Source of the DNA: Escherichia phage APECc02 | Direction: 5' to 3' (one strand) | Sequence record: NC_041869.1 | DNA length: 64,000 nt | Shown: piece by piece, positions 2,491 through 36,330 of the stretch | Layout of the letters: the number at the start of each line of letters is the position of its first letter | Position numbering within the stretch: the stretch's first letter is position 1 | Program-made: the position numbers and the translations under genes | The notes under the pieces: generated by a model | Seen by the model: only the letters and a program-made list of their open reading frames with translations | Databases searched by the model: none | Told to the model about the DNA's origin: nothing

Positions 2491-3699
2491 ATGATTTTCA
2501 TCTACGAACATTTCAAAACCCGTAAAGAAGCACGAGACCGCCGTGCAGAACTTGAGAAGAAGGGTTTCACATGTGCCATTGAGAAAGGCGACACAACCTG
2601 GACACTGGCAGTTGGTGCCCCAGAGTTGTTCGATCCTGACCGTGACAGCGTCTGCTACACCCGTGAGGATTTTGAAACCCGCGAAGAGGCCCGTTTATTT
2701 CGATACGGTCTGGAAGATAACGGTAAGTACGCTATGATCTTAGATTTAGGCGAAGGTTCCGTTAAACGTTGGGGCGTGGTATACCCACTGTGTGTTGTTC
2801 ACGGTGTGGGGTTCACTGGAGTAGCAATCAAGTCAGAAGAACCTTTAGTAGAAGTCAAAGATCCGGTGCTGGAAGTGGTGAGTAGTGTGTCTCAGCAACA
2901 GACTCGAAGCATCGAACCTTTGGTAGTTATTTGCGGGGAACTCCTCCAGATCACCTGCAACGAAGGCATTTTTGAAATTCGCCGCAGCGAAAGTGAGGAA
3001 GTTTACCAGAAAGTCTTCGACCATATCTCTGTTCAGGAATATGATGAGGCAATTGGTGAAATCCTTGTCTGGCTGGAACGCAAGAATGAGTTCACCACAC
3101 TTGCAGACAACCTGATCATGAAAGATGGTAAGCTCTACTACTACGGTGTAGAGATGCGATCCACCATTGCAAAGAAAATTGAGAAAGATTATGCAGACGG
3201 AACACTGGATGACCGCTATGTGAAATTCCTCGTTCGCCTGCTACGCAATCCTTCTGCAAAATCTGTAAACATGCTCTACGACTTTATGCAGGCCAACGAT
3301 ATCCAGATTGCAGAAGATGGTCGAATCATTTGCTACAAAGGGGTTCAGTTTAACGGCAGCAAGTGGGTGGATTGGCACAGTGGTAAAGTCCCACAATACC
3401 AAGGTGCTTTTGTATCCATGCCTCGTAACTTTGTAGAGGATGATCCTGAAGCTGCGTGCTCCTATGGCTTACACTGCGCCAGCAAAGAGTATGCAAAGAG
3501 CTACGGCACTGTAATGACTGTTATGGTTGACCCTGCAGATGTGGTTAGTGTGCCATACCAACACAATAGCGCTAAGTGCCGTGCATGCCGCTATGAGATT
3601 GTGGTAGCTCCTCCGGAAGCACGCAAAGATGGAGACCCTATTGAATATGTAGTTGATCGTGACGGTAACACTATCGACATTCTTTACGAGGAGGCGTAA
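2491..3699 (+). CDS. hypothetical protein, 402 aa; two N-terminal SPOR/RRM-like repeats and Cys/His-rich C-terminus (tentative)
   Basis: ATG 11 nt after GHKL gene with AAGGAGA RBS; internal duplication of F.TR.EAR...L...G...W motif; C-terminal CSYGLHCASKEY and KCRACRY; function not assignable. Confidence 0.55.
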   Translation: MIFIYEHFKTRKEARDRRAELEKKGFTCAIEKGDTTWTLAVGAPELFDPDRDSVCYTREDFETREEARLFRYGLEDNGKYAMILDLGEGSVKRWGVVYPLCVVHGVGFTGVAIKSEEPLVEVKDPVLEVVSSVSQQQTRSIEPLVVICGELLQITCNEGIFEIRRSESEEVYQKVFDHISVQEYDEAIGEILVWLERKNEFTTLADNLIMKDGKLYYYGVEMRSTIAKKIEKDYADGTLDDRYVKFLVRLLRNPSAKSVNMLYDFMQANDIQIAEDGRIICYKGVQFNGSKWVDWHSGKVPQYQGAFVSMPRNFVEDDPEAACSYGLHCASKEYAKSYGTVMTVMVDPADVVSVPYQHNSAKCRACRYEIVVAPPEARKDGDPIEYVVDRDGNTIDILYEEA

Positions 3700-5069
3700 T
3701 GGAAAAAGGGCAGTATGATGTAGGCACAGATGCTGCCCTCGTTGCAATCATGAGTGGTGAGAATGTCTTCGTTTCAGGACCCGCAGGTTGTGGGAAGACG
3801 TACCTCATCAACATGATCCAGTCAATGTATGGAGACTCTTGCATAACGGTTGCCCCGACAGGGGTAGCCGCTTTAAACGTTAATGGAGCAACAGCACACC
3901 GAACCTTCGATCTTGCAGCAGGTGTGAGCATGGAGTCAGACTGGACCGCAATAAGGGCAAAAACAGCAAAGCCTTTGAAAAGCAAGGCATTTACCATCCT
4001 AATTATCGATGAAATCTCTATGATCCGTGCTGATAAGTTTATAGAGATGGATAGGAAACTCCGCTTCCTTCGAAAAAATGACAAACCTTTCGGAGGCATA
4101 CAGGTCATATTGTTTGGCGATTTTTACCAGGCCCCTCCTGTTGTCTCTTCTATGGAGAAGGAGGCCTATTTCAACTTCTACCATACGGACCTGTGTTGCT
4201 ATACCGAATCTTGGAAAGAGCTTGACCTCCACAACATAGCCCTAATAGATCAGTTCCGACAGGAGTCTATTCGATTTGCCACAATGCTCAACTGTGTTCG
4301 TGAGGGTCGTCGCATAAAAGAGGTTGTAGCAGAACTTAATGCTCGCTGTTACAAAGGAGGTGTACCAACAGACGCTCTCACAATTTGCGCCACCAACAAA
4401 CAAGCAGAGGAAGTGAACAGAAGGTTCTATGATGCCATCAACGCCCCAGAGAAGGTATACACTGGTGAAATGAAGGGTAAGTTTCCCTCCACCTTGCCAG
4501 TTGAGCAGGAGATGAAGTTGAAAATTGGCATGAAAGTTATGATAACCGCCAACGATGTTGACCCGACGCACAAAGTACCTTATTATGTTAACGGAACACG
4601 TGCCACAATTGTTAAATTTAAGAACAAGGCAGTGGTGGTAGAGCTTGAAGATGGAACACAGGTTGACATAGAGCAAAGGTTGTGGGAGAATAACGAGTAT
4701 AAGCCATCTCAGAGATACAACATTGCAGAAAGGAAGATGGAGAAGTTTATAGAGAGGGTAGTGATTGGGTCATACAGGCAACTTCCTCTGAAATCTGGGT
4801 ATGCCGTAACATCTCATAAAAGTCAAGGACTTACGCTAGATTGTTACAACCTGGACCTTGGAAAGAACGGAGCTTTCTCTCCTGGGATGACGTATGTTGC
4901 TTTGAGTCGGGTTAAGACAATACAAGGAATAAACTTGTTGCGTCCACTAAGAGAAGTTGACATTATTGTTGACCCGCGAGTCGTAGAGTTTTACAATACA
5001 ACATTCCCTGACTTAGACAAAATTGTCAGGAAAGATTTTGAAACCAGAGCCGAAGAGGGGGACGTATGA
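3699..5069 (+). CDS. SF1B DNA helicase, Dda/Pif1/RecD-like
   Basis: Walker A GPAGCGKT near N-terminus, C-terminal VTSHKSQGLTLD motif, size and motif order as T4 Dda; start overlaps upstream stop (TAATG). Confidence 0.75.
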   Translation: MEKGQYDVGTDAALVAIMSGENVFVSGPAGCGKTYLINMIQSMYGDSCITVAPTGVAALNVNGATAHRTFDLAAGVSMESDWTAIRAKTAKPLKSKAFTILIIDEISMIRADKFIEMDRKLRFLRKNDKPFGGIQVILFGDFYQAPPVVSSMEKEAYFNFYHTDLCCYTESWKELDLHNIALIDQFRQESIRFATMLNCVREGRRIKEVVAELNARCYKGGVPTDALTICATNKQAEEVNRRFYDAINAPEKVYTGEMKGKFPSTLPVEQEMKLKIGMKVMITANDVDPTHKVPYYVNGTRATIVKFKNKAVVVELEDGTQVDIEQRLWENNEYKPSQRYNIAERKMEKFIERVVIGSYRQLPLKSGYAVTSHKSQGLTLDCYNLDLGKNGAFSPGMTYVALSRVKTIQGINLLRPLREVDIIVDPRVVEFYNTTFPDLDKIVRKDFETRAEEGDV

Positions 5070-22980: not shown

Positions 22981-23165
22981 GTTCCGGATCTCGACCTGAA
23001 ATTTTTGGGGACGAAATCGATTTTTCGTTTTCAGAAATGGATTTTTAAAATTTCTATATGGGAATATTTTATGGGATACTGTTTTATAGGAAATTGTTAC
23101 GGAGGGTAATTAGCATGCTAACTAAATTTATGAAATGCGAAAAGTTCTCATTTAGAATTTTGAAT

Positions 23166-23352
23166 GATAATCATTCTCGTTTGCAGAATAACGGGCACCC
23201 CCGGTGATTGTCTCCCGGCCCCTACTGCCCCAGCTTGTTATTATAGTAACACACAGGACAAAGAAAGCAAGAAGTTTTTGCATAAATTTTTAGACGATAA
23301 TGATAATCGTTCTCATTTTATGCAGCGCCCATCCCCGGTGGTTGTCTCCCCC
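23166..23352. repeat. two copies of about 55-bp direct repeat
   Basis: GATAATC.TTCTC.TTT..GCAG...CCCCGGTG.TTGTCTCCC at 23166 and 23302. Confidence 0.55.
23278..23307 (+). promoter_or_regulatory. sigma70-like promoter TTGCAT-N17/18-GATAAT
   Basis: good -35/-10 pair reading into the second direct repeat; no ORF with RBS follows for about 250 nt. Confidence 0.4.
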
Positions 23353-23572
23353 GTCACCGGTGCCTGCCGTCCTTTCGATAGGTATATTGTGCCACCTGGC
23401 GTGGCCGCTGTCAACACTTTTCAAAAAATTTTTCTAACCTGATGCGCTAACCGCTGCAACCTGGCGGGGCCAGCCTGGCAGGACCTAACTGACCAGGTAG
23501 GAGAGAATGAAGGCTTATAATCTGGTGGGCCTATGCTATAGGATAGGTAACAATTGAAGAGGAGGTACAAAA

Positions 23573-23695
23573 ATGAAAGGTAATATGATCCCCCTGGAAA
23601 ATGTAGCGATTAATGACGCTGAGGCTATCGCCATGGTTGAAAGGCTATGGCGGGAGCGTTGGAACATAAAGAAGAGTACGAAAAATGGTGGTTAA
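23573..23695 (+). CDS. small protein, 40 aa (below ORF-track cutoff)
   Basis: ATG 8 nt after strong RBS GAAGAGGAGG; MKGNMIPLENVAINDAEAIAMVERLWRERW... Confidence 0.35.
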   Translation: MKGNMIPLENVAINDAEAIAMVERLWRERWNIKKSTKNGG

Positions 23696-23832
23696 CCTGG
23701 CGGGGGCGGCGGCTGGAGAATTCTGCCCAAAAAATAATTTTAACTAATGGTTGACAGCTCGGACAGTTCTTGTTATTCTTATCCTCGCAAGGTGAACAAC
23801 ACCAAACTAATTAACAGAGAGGATAAAAAATC

Positions 23833-33111: not shown

Positions 33112-33375
33112 ATGAAACGTCTGGATCAGCTTAAATTAGTTCAGTACATGGCCTACAGAATTCTTGAAGTCCAGAAAGGTAGCAAAAAAGAGGTTTGCGA
33201 GAAAGCTTATAAGATCTTCACTCGTAAAAAAGATGATTGGATGTTACGCCAGACCAAAAAGGCTGACATCTTGGGGTACCTGGAAGAAGAGATCCGCCTT
33301 GAAGAGCAAGAAGAGATCCGCCGTAGTGAGGCAGATTATCAGGCAGCTTGGGAAAACTGGATGAGCAACAAATAA
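33112..33375 (+). CDS. hypothetical protein
   Basis: 87-aa ORF with AAAGAGGAAA RBS; last plus-strand gene of the block. Confidence 0.5.
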   Translation: MKRLDQLKLVQYMAYRILEVQKGSKKEVCEKAYKIFTRKKDDWMLRQTKKADILGYLEEEIRLEEQEEIRRSEADYQAAWENWMSNK

Positions 33376-33394
33376 TACAACAAGGTGCACGGTC

Positions 33395-33420
33395 AGGGGC
33401 TTAAAGCCCCTTTCTTTTTG
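33395..33420 (+). terminator. rho-independent terminator
   Basis: hairpin AGGGGC-TTAAA-GCCCCT followed by TTCTTTTTG. Confidence 0.65.
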
Positions 33421-34028
33421 TCTCCTCTTTTCCTACCACAAATGGCCCCGCCTGGCAAATGGAATAATCAACAAGCCAGCAATTAACCCCACTGTACAAA
33501 CATACATATAAAATAACTATTGCATAATTTTTCATTGTGTGGTAGCAGGGCCATTTTTACACGTTTTTCCTTCCAAAATTGCACGTAATGCAGCATTTGC
33601 ACAAAATTTAACCTGATGCATATCTTCAATAGCTTGTCAACAACTAAAAATCTTTATAAGTCATACACTTACATAACTACAAAAGCGTTTTCTACGTGAA
33701 AAATCGAGTATAACTATAGCCGCCAGATCTCAGAATTTACGTACGCTCGCCATTCTATAGCCTGCTAAGCATTTATTCCAACCATAGAATAACGGAATAG
33801 TCAATACCTGCATAAAATAATTATTCGTGTAAACTGCATAACATAAATCGGCCCAGGTGTCAACATTTTTCGTAAACAGTCTGGAATTGTCACGTTAGGT
33901 TACCATAAGCAGAGAAATCTTTAGTCGTCTAATGTTTACTGTACGTTACTATACTAACTGAAATCATTAGATGACTAATAGAAAGATAAGAAATAATTAA
34001 CAATACAATTATTTTATCTGTAACAATA

Positions 34029-34205
34029 AGGCAACTATGCAAACGAATGGCATGGCGCGACGGAGTCGCGACATAATATAAAAGCAGTAACCATCACCCC
34101 CGTGATAGTTTGTCTGCAAACTATTAATCAGATCATAGTTGCCTTGTATTTAGTTAATCATGACATAACAAGCAAGGCAACTATAGATCTGCTAATAGTT
34201 GCCCT
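34029..34205. repeat. four copies of 11-mer AAGGCAACTAT in alternating orientation (candidate protein-binding sites)
   Basis: plus-orientation at 34029 and 34174, inverted at 34136 and 34195; 34135-34146/34173-34184 form a 12-bp perfect inverted repeat 26 bp apart. Confidence 0.6.
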
Positions 34206-34317
34206 GCTTTTATATTATGTCATAGAAACACCCGAAGGGGTGACCAAAGGTTACCTGGCATAGCCAGTGAAAGATTATTAACTTGCTAATCTTTATCATG
34301 CAAACGAATGGCATGGC
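34037..34317. repeat. 20-bp perfect direct repeat ATGCAAACGAATGGCATGGC
   Basis: copies at 34037-34056 and 34298-34317. Confidence 0.65.
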
Positions 34318-34338
34318 TTATCATTTCTGTGTAAATAG

Positions 34339-34390
34339 TCTATGCGTAAACTGTCAAGGCGTAAACAATCTATGCGTGAACAGTGAAACA
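34339..34390. repeat. short direct repeats TCTATGCGT(A/G)AAC and GCGTAAAC
   Basis: TCTATGCGTAAAC at 34339, GGCGTAAACA at 34359, TCTATGCGTGAAC at 34369. Confidence 0.5.
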
Positions 34391-34423
34391 TGAAATAATA
34401 ACAGTTGTTATTGTGTCATATTG

Positions 34424-34505
34424 TGCTGCAGCGTGTTGAGTATGTTTAAGGTGCCCAGTATGTCACCATTATGTCACTATTGTGTCATAGTGTCATAGTA
34501 TGTCA
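34424..34505. repeat. iteron-like array of TGTCA(C/T) pentamers at about 10-11 bp phasing
   Basis: TGTCA at 34424, 34461, 34472, 34483, 34491, 34501 (plus 34362, 34525). Confidence 0.6.
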
Positions 34506-35083
34506 GACAAGTTTTTCCCCTCTTTGTCAAGTGCTGCATGAAAAAATTTACAAGCTGGTATGGTAGCATTTTTGCGGCCTTGTTTACATTCAGTAATGTA
34601 TGTATAACCCTTGATGTGTGGGCGTTTAGACGTCTAGACGGTCAGAAGTCTGCAGGTCAATATCTAATCTATTGGCTGCTAACTATATCCCCCACAAATA
34701 ATAAGAAATATAATTGTTATGTGCGTAAACAGTAACTCATGTTATCAATCCCTGTATGGATCGCCAGTGGTGCGCATAATGGGTATTATGTTAAATTGCC
34801 CGTAATGATAACTATTCTCACAATGATAGGTATTCTCATTCACCCCCACAAGATAGGTTGCAAATGTTGTGCCACTGTGTGAACGGCCTAGCCTATTAAT
34901 TTGCCTCACTGCCTTGATATTTGAGAATTGTTATAAGAATGAGAAGTATTCCCATTTCGTCCGCCTGGCAGCACTCCTGTAGGTCCTGCAAGGACTCTAG
35001 CTGAAAGCTAGACCCTTCGGGCCTCCCTGTAGGTCAGGTCAAAATCGTGGTAGAATTGGGCCTGTTCAGATATTTCTGGCTGA

Positions 35084-35643
35084 CTCTTCAGGTCTGTGTG
35101 GGAAAAGCCAACCTCTCCGGCGGGGCAGGGGGTCATGACGGGAAAATTGCAGGTCAATTAAAAAATTTACGTGGTGTATGAAGCGCTCTTCAGGTAAGGC
35201 ATGTATTATGGGATGAAACCCTCTTCAGGCAATGATATTTGTGGGTGTGATATTTGCTGGAAAGCCAGATATGACGGGACTCCCGGCGGGGCAGGGGTAG
35301 TACAGACAGGGAAAATATGAGAATGTAGTTGGGGAAATTGATCAGACAGGTAGAGTATGGAATATGTTACAAGTATGTTAAATATGGAGGTTGAATATCT
35401 GTAGGATTTGTGTGTAAAATCAAAGACTTAAGGGGTGTTGTGGTATTTTCTATAAATAATTCAAGTTTAATAGGCAATATTTGTCTCTATCCGCTTTGTG
35501 TGGTAAACAGATTCAGATTAGATTGGTTTACAAGTGTATACATAATATACAAATTAAAGATACAAGAAACCCCCCTCCCCCCTTCGGCTACCATTCACCT
35601 TTTCCTCTGACTGGTACTTAAACACTTATTCAGACTCTTCAGG
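35084..35643. repeat. dispersed direct repeats CTCTTCAGG (x4), CCGGCGGGGCAGGGG (x2), CCTGTAGGTC (x2)
   Basis: CTCTTCAGG at 35084, 35186, 35221, 35635; CCGGCGGGGCAGGGG at 35117 and 35283, each followed by G-rich GGGAAAAT. Confidence 0.55.
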
Positions 35644-35993
35644 TTATCACCCATATATCATATGGCAGTGACTGGTGTCCTCCGGCCCCTCTTTCGTCAC
35701 CCGTCCGCTTCGCCATGCTAATGCCATAGCTAATGGTTCGGTTGTTCACCCTGTTCACTCAGGTGTATCTCTATACCCCTTCAAACCGAAGAGAACAGAA
35801 AACCCGAATTACTCGGTAAAAGAAAAGAGAAGAACTTAATTTTATCAGGATAGGCAAGAATGTCAAGGCATGACTGCTCACTAAACAAGCAAACAGTCAT
35901 GTGTGGGAGGTAAGTGATTGTGGTGGTAGGAAATTTAGTTGAAAGATGTGTTATAGGTGCTTCCAGCACTTTAGCCGGGCAGCTAATTGTGTG

Positions 35994-36209
35994 TCAGTCC
36001 AGCGGTTCATCCTCTACTTCACTGAAATCAATGTTCATGGTCTCTTCCCAACCATCGATCTCAGCACAAGAGTGGAGTTCTTTAGGGTTTACTCCCAAAG
36101 CCTCAGCAACAGAGTCTATATTTAACACCTCTGGCAGGTATGATTCATCGAATTCAAGGTAAATCAGGCCACGAGTGTTGTCAGCTCCACCAAATATCTC
36201 TATCTTCAT
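35994..36209 (-). CDS. hypothetical small acidic protein
   Basis: 71-aa ORF, last gene of minus-strand block. Confidence 0.5.
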   Translation of the reverse strand: MKIEIFGGADNTRGLIYLEFDESYLPEVLNIDSVAEALGVNPKELHSCAEIDGWEETMNIDFSEVEDEPLD

Positions 36210-36330
36210 AAAATCTCCTCTGGGAATGAAAGTGTGAACAGGGTTTTATACGTTCTAATGCACAGGAATTATACACGTTTGCCTCTTCAGGCCATGCTTC
36301 AGCATGAGGAACCTGTGTGGGCTCGGTGCT

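Follow-up and report, generated by a model that had tools for sequence, protein, structure and literature searches.

The 2.6-kb ORF-poor region examined here, part of a 64-kb window (the whole stretch of DNA analysed) from Escherichia phage APECc02, is very probably the terminal region of the linear phage chromosome, seen as the junction of right and left ends that a concatemer or a circularly closed assembly would contain. Alignment with relatives shows that positions 34506-34965 correspond to a single internal copy of the direct terminal repeat (DTR) of about 460 bp that these relatives carry at both virion ends. The region is not a new kind of element. Its core identity as a terminal repeat is already known from close relatives, while the anatomical details are new.

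Since 2013, maps of rV5-type genomes have shown this 2.6-kb 'non-coding region' as a grey box with no explanation, and most of the roughly 120 public genomes have been deposited as if circularly permuted and opened at arbitrary points. A physical end with a 460-bp DTR fixes the genome start, and explains assembly breaks and duplications at this position. rV5-type phages are widely used in therapy and typing, and recognition of the DTR shows engineers which DNA to keep for packaging. It also provides concrete, testable sequences, namely the TGYCA^GRC cut sites (the caret marks the cut), the repeat arrays, the palindromes and an orphan promoter.

Genomic context and layout of the region

The window belongs to a Vequintavirus (rV5-like coliphage) and matches 120 phage records at approximately 90-96% identity by megablast, with this genus found where taxonomy was checked. 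A 'distant' blastn search toward other genera returned Vequintavirus matches only. The region corresponds to positions 104013-106618 of rV5, a stretch without CDS. The rV5 and Murica papers label the same 2.6-kb stretch "non-coding region" without explaining it, and the EdH4 papers contain no treatment of it. As the initial annotation described, the region is poor in ORFs and lies between converging gene blocks, with the + strand block stopping at 33375 and the - strand block at 35994. Across 15 related genomes, none of four candidate ORFs stays open and none has a third-codon-position bias. The four included the Murica 'novel gene' frame and a 'membrane protein' frame; all were rejected as genes, as they contain stops or frameshifts in relatives and lack this bias. 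The two candidate ORFs in the left flank are interrupted by stop codons in relatives, and the other short ORFs of the region were judged implausible. The flanking 71-aa gene is genus-restricted, and a 23-mer from the most conserved block was matched by only 2 contigs in IMG/VR. The features of the region are as follows.

33395..33420 (hairpin 33395-33411), + strand: Rho-independent terminator closing the left (+) transcription unit, AGGGGCTTAAAGCCCCT then TTCTTTTT; corresponds to t164 in rV5 Table S4
33421..34020, no strand: AT-rich conserved non-coding left flank, identity 0.8-0.99 across 15 genomes
34021..34317, no strand: repeat cluster, in which two 20-bp direct repeats bracket four AAGGCAACTAT sites
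34225..34505, + strand: hypervariable array zone directly outside the left DTR edge, identity 0.26-0.75 and gap fraction 0.07-0.63
34501..34509, + strand: putative left cut site TGTCA^GACA (TGTCA^GACAAG), palindromic around the central A and invariant in 17 genomes
34506..34965, no strand: DTR of 460 bp, matching the repeat found at either end in the records of HdK5 and YN3
34804, 34822 and 34938 (34804..34956), no strand: three copies of a 19-bp palindrome, AATGA(G/T)AA-NNN-TT(C/A)TCATT, a candidate protein-binding site found by repeat search
34963..34970, - strand: putative right cut site GCC^TGGCA (TGCCA^GGC on the - strand), placing the chromosome end at 34965
34966..35300, + strand: G-rich, partly hypervariable right flank with GATATTT repeats, CCTGTAGGTC, CTCTTCAGG and CCGGCGGGGCAGGGG
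35540..35900, - strand: most conserved block, a putative untranslated transcript or cis element with no conserved ORF
35839..35866, - strand: orphan sigma-70 promoter, TTGACA-16-TAAAAT with an extended -10 (TG), matching 11/12 consensus positions plus the TG

The direct terminal repeat and the mode of packaging

Records of related phages place the chromosome ends precisely. In HdK5, bases 1-459 are 100% identical to the last 459 bases and map to window positions 34965-34506, while bases 1-458 of YN3 are 100% identical to its last 458 bases, with the same edges as in HdK5. The window DTR is 97.2% identical to the 459-bp end repeat of HdK5 and 95.4% identical to the 458-bp repeat of YN3. Supporting this, the opening base of the Pr121LW record is exactly window position 34506, the ECP2309 record stops at query position 1107, and those of bov11CS3 and bov25_3 begin at 1566, which are the same two edge coordinates. 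For EdH4 and HdK5, 'short terminal redundancies of 458 bp' had been reported (Korf 2019, PMC6563267). These redundancies (PMC6563267; MK373780) represent the same element, being 95-97% identical, 458-460 bp long and bounded by identical edges, and they occupy the same place relative to the converging gene blocks. The 2019 report gave the length only, and made no connection to the rV5 'non-coding region', the cut-site symmetry, the arrays, the palindromes or the promoter. The chromosome ends of the window phage are placed here by comparison with relatives whose repeats are 95-97% identical to its own. Among the functions first proposed for the region, that of a packaging or terminus locus holds up, as the DTR and both cut sites lie inside it, as in relatives with recorded physical ends (PMC6563267).

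The DTR occurs once in the 64-kb window, with right-end and left-end unique DNA on either side. Its length is 459-460 bp in all 17 genomes compared, and both edge sequences are fixed. Identity within the repeat is 0.90-1.0, conservation steps sharply at both edges, and the DNA directly outside either edge is indel-hypervariable. At the left edge, the HdK5 and YN3 records end in AAAAACTTGTC and the Pr121LW record begins with GACAAGTTTTT, which puts the chromosome start at 34506. At the right edge, the HdK5 and YN3 records begin with GGCGGACGAAATGGG. The inner side of the right cut, CGTCCGCC, is invariant in the 17 genomes (CGTCCGCC^TGGCA), with an outer flank of TGGCA in 14 genomes, AGGCA in rV5 and TAGCA in WalterGehring. 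Both cut sites follow one pattern, TGYCA^GRC, in inverted orientation, with TGTCA^GACA read on the + strand and TGCCA^GGCG on the - strand. A 523-bp tandem duplication in CM1 abuts the first copy of the right site.

An opposing explanation, which appears very unlikely, holds that these phages have no fixed ends. They would be circularly permuted and headful-packaged, the region would be a convergence spacer with terminators or regulator sites, and the repeat an artefact of assembly or software. The rV5 paper does use the wording 'circularly permuted', but it took this solely from a closed 3.6x Sanger assembly. One paper obtained a PhageTerm call of 'headful with partial permutation' for Vequintavirus BpE1AUH, and the same program called ICP1 headful. 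phiTE, of a sister genus, has been described as permuted and carries out generalized transduction, and most GenBank records are opened elsewhere than at the DTR edges. In addition, the CM1 duplication of 523 bp is not the expected 460 bp; its right edge is canonical and its left edge lies 65 bp upstream of the canonical cut. However, three laboratories put the ends at identical nucleotides, both repeat copies have been deposited for HdK5 and YN3, and KPP-1 has approximately twofold read coverage over its repeat. A fixed length of 459-460 bp with invariant edges beside hypervariable flanks is also hard to explain for an arbitrary spacer. The + and - strand termini of ICP1 (431 and 891) are separated by 460 bp, a spacing that resembles a short terminal repeat in its own right.

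When the C-terminal part of phiTE TerL was used in tblastn, matches were found in the rV5, KB57 and phi92 groups, as well as in Felix O1-like phages, PAK_P3-like phages and ICP1. Short DTRs have been reported in these TerL-matched groups for KPP-1 and for the phi92-like BME3 (342 bp by PhageTerm), in contrast to the headful call for ICP1. KPP-1, a Klebsiella phage of Mydovirus, has a 514-bp DTR according to both coverage and PhageTerm (PMC9862379), and this repeat aligns with the window DTR at a z-score of approximately 4.7 versus shuffles. It begins with GACGGAC (GGCGGAC in the window) and ends with TTGACAA, a purine tract and TTGT. It likewise lies in a gene-poor convergence zone (1.8 kb), with TGCTA^ in inverted orientation outside both edges and AATGAnAA...TCATT palindromes nearby. 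However, the KPP-1 DTR is 54 bp longer, has other short repeats in place of the TGTCA and GTAAAC arrays, and on its GGCGGAC side has a flank of only about 335 bp that lacks the conserved 340-bp block. A stretch beside the KPP-1 DTR is weakly homologous to window positions 35226-35314 (66% identity over 95 nt, E 0.007). ICP1 (Barth et al. 2020, PMC7145576) also resembles the window phage in its related TerL, T7-type replisome, ORF-less terminus and palindrome copies, but it differs in its pac/headful call by PhageTerm, in the lack of overall DNA homology, and in flanking genes that diverge instead of converging.

With fixed ends as the preferred reading, packaging could proceed much as in the T7 model. 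The terminase would cut opposite strands at the two DTR edges, at the inverted TGYCA^GRC copies, and strand-displacement synthesis would then duplicate the 460 bp between the cuts. Because this interval would be duplicated, each packaged chromosome would receive a DTR copy at both ends. The rV5 group has a T7-type replisome, consisting of a gp4-like helicase-primase and a family A polymerase. The 160/230-bp terminal repeats of T7/T3 are reportedly flanked by short-repeat arrays, SRL and SRR. The region shares with T7/T3 a single short DTR per concatemer unit, phased short-repeat arrays directly outside it, promoters reading toward or through the junction and a T7-type replisome. Unlike T7, a 40-kb podovirus, the window phage represents a 137-kb myovirus group with a repeat three times longer, no phage RNA polymerase and no sequence similarity, and the staggered-cut mechanism is one that we infer.

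The cos site of lambda provides another point of comparison. It combines a cosN nicking site with cosB terminase- and IHF-binding sites, and generates 12-nt cohesive ends without terminal duplication. The likeness lies in site-specific terminase cleavage beside an array of protein-binding repeats; in the window phage, unlike lambda, the cuts would be 460 bp apart and the interval between them duplicated.

Repeat arrays and palindromes around the termini

All repeats listed in the initial annotation were recovered in place, with small corrections, and exceed chance expectation. On the left side, the A+T content of the region peaks in a 50-mer at 33980-34029 (84%), which directly adjoins the first AAGGCAACTAT site. 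Four such sites alternate in orientation at 34028 (+), 34135 (-), 34174 (+) and 34195 (-), the fourth with one mismatch (ATAGTTGCCCT), compared with 0.13 expected at up to one mismatch given the density of the motif elsewhere in the window. The 20-bp perfect direct repeat ATGCAAACGAATGGCATGGC occurs at 34037 and 34298, 261 bp apart. The cluster also contains an 18-bp perfect inverted repeat (34070-34087 and 34204-34221) and, on the - strand, two hairpins that resemble terminators (34089-34110 and 34229-34242). It has matches in 116 records. In FV3, a clean deletion of 34057-34317 between the 20-bp repeats has left one of them.

Closer to the DTR, phased TGTCA units start at 34461, 34472, 34483, 34491 and 34501 (spacings of 11, 11, 8 and 10), with one more at 34414. 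This array stops exactly at the left cut, and its last TGTCA forms the outer half of the cut site. GTAAAC units of the GCGTAAAC type recur at 15-nt spacing from 34331 to 34387, and GTAAACAGT is found nine times in the region at up to one mismatch, compared with 1.0 expected. Among 18 sequences, the spacer outside the left DTR edge ranges from 95 to 305 bp and holds 1-6 TGT[CG]A units and 0-9 GTRAAY units; of the TGTCA units, only the terminal one is invariant. A strict requirement for the arrays is excluded by FV3, with its single TGTCA unit, and by V18, in which GTAAAC units are absent. The initial description of these repeats as iterons was an interpretation and not an observation: AAGGCAACTAT alternates in orientation, and the copy number of the short arrays varies among relatives.

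On the right side, CCTGTAGGTC occurs twice (34976 and 35026) and CCGGCGGGGCAGGGG twice (35117 and 35283). CTCTTCAGG is present four times, always on the + strand (35084, 35186, 35221 and 35635; 0.17 expected), and a fifth copy just outside the region at 36283 means that five copies share one strand. Indels in this flank are modular (34976-35025 and 35125-35150), and GC skew is +0.33 to +0.43 across 35050-35499.

Inside the DTR, the third copy of the 19-bp palindrome (34938) lies 10 bp from the right cut. The motif has 17 matches in the window compared with 1.24 expected, including a second cluster at 23134-23317, and related motifs are found in the terminus regions of KPP-1, BME3 and ICP1. As to the earlier proposal of a binding platform for a phage regulator, this operator-like palindrome was absent from the first listing of repeats but is present in the DTR. 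The ORF-poor stretch at 23.1 kb that holds the second cluster has no homology to the region beyond the palindrome. Host Fur boxes were considered as an identity for the DTR palindromes and rejected, with one site matching the Fur consensus at 14/19 and two falling below this cut-off. Better matches to the Fur consensus occur elsewhere, at 23296 and at the BME3 DTR edge, and Fur is kept only as a lead.

From this arrangement, we infer roles for the arrays, the palindromes and the staggered cuts. The TGTCA array and the GTAAAC units may be accessory elements on which the packaging enzyme lands, or may be a slippage by-product at an end that is repeatedly cut and copied. The DTR palindromes could be bound by the small terminase subunit or by a host factor. 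Replication or transcription at the end of the chromosome is the probable role of the outer conserved blocks, among them the orphan promoter directed toward the DTR.

Possible replication and transcription functions at the chromosome end

Among full-length matches listed, the block at 35540..35900 has an identity of at least 97.9%; it is covered by 116 of 117 matching records and has an alignment identity of 0.93-1.0. It contains C6TC6 at 35570-35582 (G6AG6 on the - strand), followed by AT-rich DNA. The orphan promoter within it points left, in the direction of the DTR, and transcription is predicted to start near 35832. It is conserved in 15 of 15 genomes (one with a 5/6 match to the -35 box), and has the architecture of rV5 promoters P036, P051 and P074, but is absent from the list in the rV5 paper.

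That the region is or contains a replication origin, as initially suggested, is a tentative possibility that would be compatible with its being a terminus. Two locations could be considered. The first (33980-34320) comprises the AT-rich 50-mer with the AAGGCAACTAT and inverted-repeat cluster, where 84% A+T DNA adjoins four 11-bp sites and long inverted repeats, all within a cluster that is matched in 116 records. The second comprises the orphan promoter, a transcript of about 260 nt that would be G-rich, the G6AG6 tract (35582-35570) and AT-rich DNA (35560-35400). Conservation in the region is highest at the promoter and the block downstream of it, and the phage group has a T7-type replisome. 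T7 origins consist of a promoter and AT-rich DNA, and secondary origins lie near the T7 ends. ICP1 has a TerL with approximately 35% identity across the C-terminal 356 residues. Its terminus is found in an ORF-less space of 1.3 kb, and a late coverage peak at the terminus end has been read as a rolling-circle origin beside the packaging site (PMC7145576).

Against an origin, the region contains no perfect DnaA box (TTATNCACA), and its six one-mismatch boxes compare with 3.5 expected, which is no enrichment. IHF sites and GATC are not enriched in the region either, and GATC is depleted. The AAGGCAACTAT sites are 11 bp long and run +,-,+,-, unlike direct iterons of 17-22 bp. The whole cluster is missing in FV3 and hence not present in all viable members. 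There is no initiator gene nearby and no conserved ORF in the region, the GC skew of rV5 follows the direction of transcription, and the ORF-less DNA of ICP1 has no overall homology to the region (z 1.4).

It is rather unlikely that the region is mainly a non-coding RNA locus, in which the orphan promoter would drive a conserved untranslated RNA and the arrays would act as RNA. The product could be either short, with a 5' end rich in C and U and carrying a terminator-like hairpin at 35816-35804, or about 260 nt long and ending at G6AG6-UUUCUU. Consistent with such a locus, the extended -10 promoter has no gene behind it, the near-invariant block has no conserved ORF, all five CTCTTCAGG copies are on one strand, and the only two internal terminator-like hairpins of the left part are both on the - strand. 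However, no match to Rfam (Rfam 15) was found in the whole window at gathering thresholds or in 33300-36100 at E<=1. ARAGORN found no tRNA or tmRNA in the window. Folded as a single sequence, the conserved block has z-scores of -1.0 (- strand) and -0.13 (+ strand). It is unremarkable in a sliding alignment-fold scan, and its sequence variation is too low for a covariation test. The strongest fold signals lie at 34000-34300 and are equal on both strands, as expected of DNA palindromes. The initial idea of structured RNAs therefore finds no support in Rfam or fold statistics, although the conservation of the orphan promoter makes some non-coding transcript likely.

Several RNA-based parallels were also discarded. 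The pseudo-ToxI of phiTE, considered as a model for an RNA decoy here, is located in a group of tRNA genes upstream of the terminase gene and not in a convergence zone. Mimicry of a type III toxin-antitoxin antitoxin does not fit, as the repeats here have a period of 10-15 nt and are not tandem 36-nt ToxI-like units. A hammerhead-like reading of CUGAAGAG is without Rfam support.

A more specific proposal, and a distinctly improbable one, is a transcription-primed late origin composed of the orphan promoter, the RNA of about 260 nt, G6AG6-UUUCUU (35582-35564) and approximately 160 bp of AT-rich DNA; alternatively, the conserved block would encode a new phage non-coding RNA. A transcript through G6AG6 would form an R-loop primer beside the left genome end. 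Through such priming, packaging would be tied to rolling-circle or concatemer synthesis, as the ICP1 coverage suggests. The mitochondrial replisome is of T7-phage ancestry, and the LSP-CSBII primer module of mitochondria has a layout similar to that of the promoter-G6AG6 element.

Repeats between converging gene blocks

The ORF-poor region at 33400-35990 is flanked by converging gene blocks, the + strand block ending at 33375 and the - strand block at 35994. Blastn matches to it come from 120 phage records, roughly 90-96% identical and all Vequintavirus (rV5-like coliphages) where taxonomy was checked. In rV5 it corresponds to 104013-106618, between ORF163 and ORF164, with no feature annotated. 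The rV5 paper draws it as a grey box marked 'non-coding' and reports a skew change there, and the Murica announcement refers to 'the 2,604-bp noncoding region in rv5'; no proposal for its function was found in the literature on the region. None of four candidate ORFs stays open across 15 related genomes or has codon-position bias at variable positions, and the other short ORFs of the region look implausible.

Features of the region (coordinates, strand where assigned, description)
33395-33411: terminator closing the + strand block
34021-34317: cluster of two 20-bp direct repeats, four AAGGCAACTAT sites and an 18-bp inverted repeat
34028 (+), 34135 (-), 34174 (+), 34195 (-, one mismatch): AAGGCAACTAT
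34037 and 34298: 20-bp perfect direct repeat
34331 to 34387: GCGTAAAC-type units, spacing 15 nt
34414, 34461, 34472, 34483, 34491, 34501 (starts): TGTCA units
34804, 34822, 34938: 19-bp palindrome AATGA(G/T)AA-NNN-TT(C/A)TCATT in the candidate terminal repeat, the last copy 10 bp from the right cut
Right end of 35540-35900 (-): sigma-70 promoter TTGACA-16-TAAAAT with TG extension, a consensus match
About 250 nt downstream of that promoter: G6AG6, then AT-rich DNA
36283 (+): fifth copy of CTCTTCAGG
Within the region: two copies of CCGGCGGGGCAGGGG

The repeats listed in the initial annotation are all present, confirming that observation, and their counts lie well above those expected from their density elsewhere in the window: four AAGGCAACTAT sites vs 0.13, nine GTAAACAGT sites at up to one mismatch vs 1.0, and four CTCTTCAGG copies, all on the + strand, vs 0.17. 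All five CTCTTCAGG copies, including the one outside the region, share this strand and fall inside 1.2 kb (35084-36291). One is intergenic, between the first and second genes of the - strand block, and leftward transcripts would carry them as CCUGAAGAG.

Two side observations concern the matching records. A 139-aa gene (rV5 ORF164) is missing from the window, JeffSchatz and FV3 (window 33112-33400 vs 3553-3972 of comparison sequence L002). In most relatives its homologue, annotated 'Rel homology domain' in Murica, is the last gene before the non-coding region, making this a gene-content polymorphism at the very edge of the terminus region. In addition, 19 'UNVERIFIED Campylobacter phage' records (GenBank MG0656xx, e.g. 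L006) are Vequintavirus genomes about 90-94% identical to the E. coli phage of the window, and their labels likely reflect mislabelling or contamination.

A direct terminal repeat in relatives

Two query positions, 1107 and 1566, recur in the blastn table as starts or ends of several records inside the region. In the HdK5 record, the first and last 459 bp are identical and map to window 34965-34506, and both ends of the YN3 record share 458 bp with the same edges. The Pr121LW record opens at GACAAGTTTTT, equivalent to window 34506, and closes with ...TATGTCA. Korf 2019 (PMC6563267) described 'short terminal redundancies of 458 bp' in EdH4 and HdK5.

The alternative, headful packaging of permuted Vequintavirus DNA instead of fixed ends, appears very improbable. 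One paper obtained a PhageTerm call of 'headful, partial permutation' for a Vequintavirus, and phiTE, from a sister genus, has been called permuted and performs generalized transduction. Shigella phage CM1 (MK962749, L012 1576-2621) carries a 523-bp perfect tandem duplication whose left edge lies 65 bp upstream of the canonical cut. Its right edge is the exact terminus of the repeat (...CGTCCGCC), and the duplication probably arose when the terminal repeat was misassembled. The circular permutation claimed for rV5 has the closure of a 3.6x Sanger assembly as its sole basis. Together with the recurring positions, the record ends and the published redundancies, this leads us to read 34506-34965, present once in the window and 97.2% identical to the HdK5 repeat, as a single internal copy of a direct terminal repeat (DTR). 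The ends of the window's own phage are thus predicted from its relatives. The suggestion of a packaging or terminus locus in the initial annotation was right, as relatives' record ends place the DTR and both edges within the region. The identity of this core is already in the literature and GenBank for the genus, so novelty is low; the explicit link of the rV5 'non-coding region' to the DTR is new.

Similar arrangements occur elsewhere. In Klebsiella phage KPP-1 (Mydovirus), a 514-bp DTR backed by about 2x coverage and PhageTerm (PMC9862379) is likewise found in gene-poor DNA, a 1.8-kb zone on which gene blocks converge. Its end-to-end alignment with the window DTR, in reverse orientation, scores 217.5 vs 161.5 +/- 11.9 in shuffles. 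The KPP-1 repeat opens with GACGGAC, the counterpart of GGCGGAC in the window, and closes with TTGACAA-purine tract-TTGT. The phi92-like BME3 has a 342-bp DTR by PhageTerm, although the record is messy. A short DTR set in gene-poor DNA thus seems characteristic of the wider rV5 group. The KPP-1 DTR also holds CCTCTTCAGG (L021, about 3597).

Predicted cut sites and unstable flanks

Conservation was followed in an alignment of the window and 14 GenBank relatives. Edge and array counts also took in two IMG/VR contigs, and array counts additionally the Pr121LW right end. Across the 15-sequence alignment, DTR conservation is 0.90-1.0, with sharp steps at both edges. Just to the left, 34225-34497 is hypervariable, with many indels, identity of 0.26-0.75 and a gap fraction of up to 0.63; 34976-35025 and 35125-35150, to the right, are similarly indel-rich. 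In all 17 genomes the DTR is 459-460 bp long, with invariant edges, TGTCA|GACAAGTTT on the left and CGTCCGCC|(T/A)(G/A)GCAGC on the right. Going inwards from the flanks, the left site reads TGTCA|GACA (+ strand) and the right one TGCCA|GGCG (- strand); these predicted cut sites are inverted copies of TGYCA|GRC. KPP-1 has TGCTA| directly outside both DTR edges, also in inverted orientation. The inverted TGYCA|GRC sites, which a second genus shares, are new. The 25 bp that open the DTR at its left end keep one layout in both genera (34506-34530; L021 4000-4030): |RACA..., an ~11-nt polypyrimidine tract, then TTGTCAAG. The tract is flanked by GACAA and TTGTC, a short inverted repeat.

Among relatives, the left spacer ranges from 95 to 305 bp. 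GTRAAY units number 0-9 in it and TGT[CG]A units 1-6, the latter often spaced at 10-11 or about 20 nt. FV3 has one TGTCA unit and V18 has 0 GTAAAC units, so a fixed array cannot be a requirement. The phased TGTCA pentamers of the initial annotation are therefore present, but as an unstable array in which the last unit alone is fixed, as the outer half of the left cut site. Also new is the contrast between the fixed 459-460-bp length and the arrays, which are unstable flanks.

The replisome of the rV5 group is of the T7 type and includes a gp4-like helicase-primase and a family A polymerase. Under a T7-type scheme, terminase would cut opposite strands at the two inverted sites within a concatemer, and the 460-bp interval would then be copied, leaving a DTR at both ends of each chromosome. 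T7 and T3 carry short-repeat arrays, SRL and SRR, directly outside their terminal repeats, and the arrays here adjoin the DTR in the same way. By analogy, the TGTCA/GTAAAC arrays may be accessory landing sites for terminase; just as well, they may have arisen by slippage at an end that is cut and copied again and again.

Conserved elements around the proposed terminus

Two unannotated conserved features are new: an orphan promoter with its conserved block, and palindromes. No part of the region is better conserved than the block, 35540-35900 (at least 97.9% identity among the full-length matches listed), which 116 of 117 matching records cover. The promoter is kept in 15/15 genomes and has no gene behind it; it belongs in one class with rV5 promoters P036, P051 and P074, but the rV5 paper's promoter list omits it. 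A discrete non-coding RNA from this promoter is unlikely, as Rfam and ARAGORN gave no match in the region and the fold of the block is unremarkable (z = -1.0). The initial interpretation is partly supported: the terminus proposal stands, and the structured RNAs and replication origin also put forward fare less well. The region has no DnaA boxes, same-orientation iterons or initiator gene. An origin here, which would be compatible with a terminus, is plausible if somewhat doubtful, on analogy with Vibrio phage ICP1, the closest studied analogue (TerL ~35% identical over the C-terminal 356 residues). The ICP1 terminus lies in a 1.3-kb ORF-less space, and a late-infection coverage peak at the terminus end was taken to mark a rolling-circle origin adjacent to the packaging site (PMC7145576), yet this DNA has no overall homology to the region (z 1.4). 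The published PhageTerm termini of ICP1 (HQ641347), 431 on the + strand and 891 on the - strand, are 460 bp apart, equal to the Vequintavirus DTR length; ICP1 is classed as a headful packager (PMC7145576), and a short DTR may have been missed.

Of all 50-mers in the region, the one that leads into the 34021-34317 cluster is the richest in AT (84% A+T). The cluster has the strongest consensus-fold signal, equal on both strands, as DNA palindromes would give. It has matches in 116 records and was lost in FV3 by a clean deletion between the 20-bp repeats; it is therefore conserved, yet dispensable in at least one deposited genome.

The 19-bp palindrome of the DTR, absent from the initial annotation, has 17 matches vs 1.24 expected in total, including three further copies in another ORF-poor stretch, at 23134-23317. 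Related motifs occur in the terminus regions of KPP-1 (L021 3914-4660), BME3 (Justusliebigvirus; L026+L025) and ICP1 (L027 860-1450). This recurrence across distant phages hints at either a conserved protein associated with terminase or a factor supplied by the host, for instance Fur. The motif looks like a Fur box, but the fit of the DTR copies to the Fur consensus is weak, with one copy at 14/19 and the other two under the 14/19 cut-off. The second ORF-poor stretch, 23100-23780, contains two roughly 54-nt repeat units (76% identical). Each opens with the DTR-type palindrome (23134, 23163, 23299), after which comes the C-rich sequence CCCCGGTG(A/G)TTGTCTCCC. At 23296, 17 of 19 positions agree with the E. 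coli Fur-box consensus.
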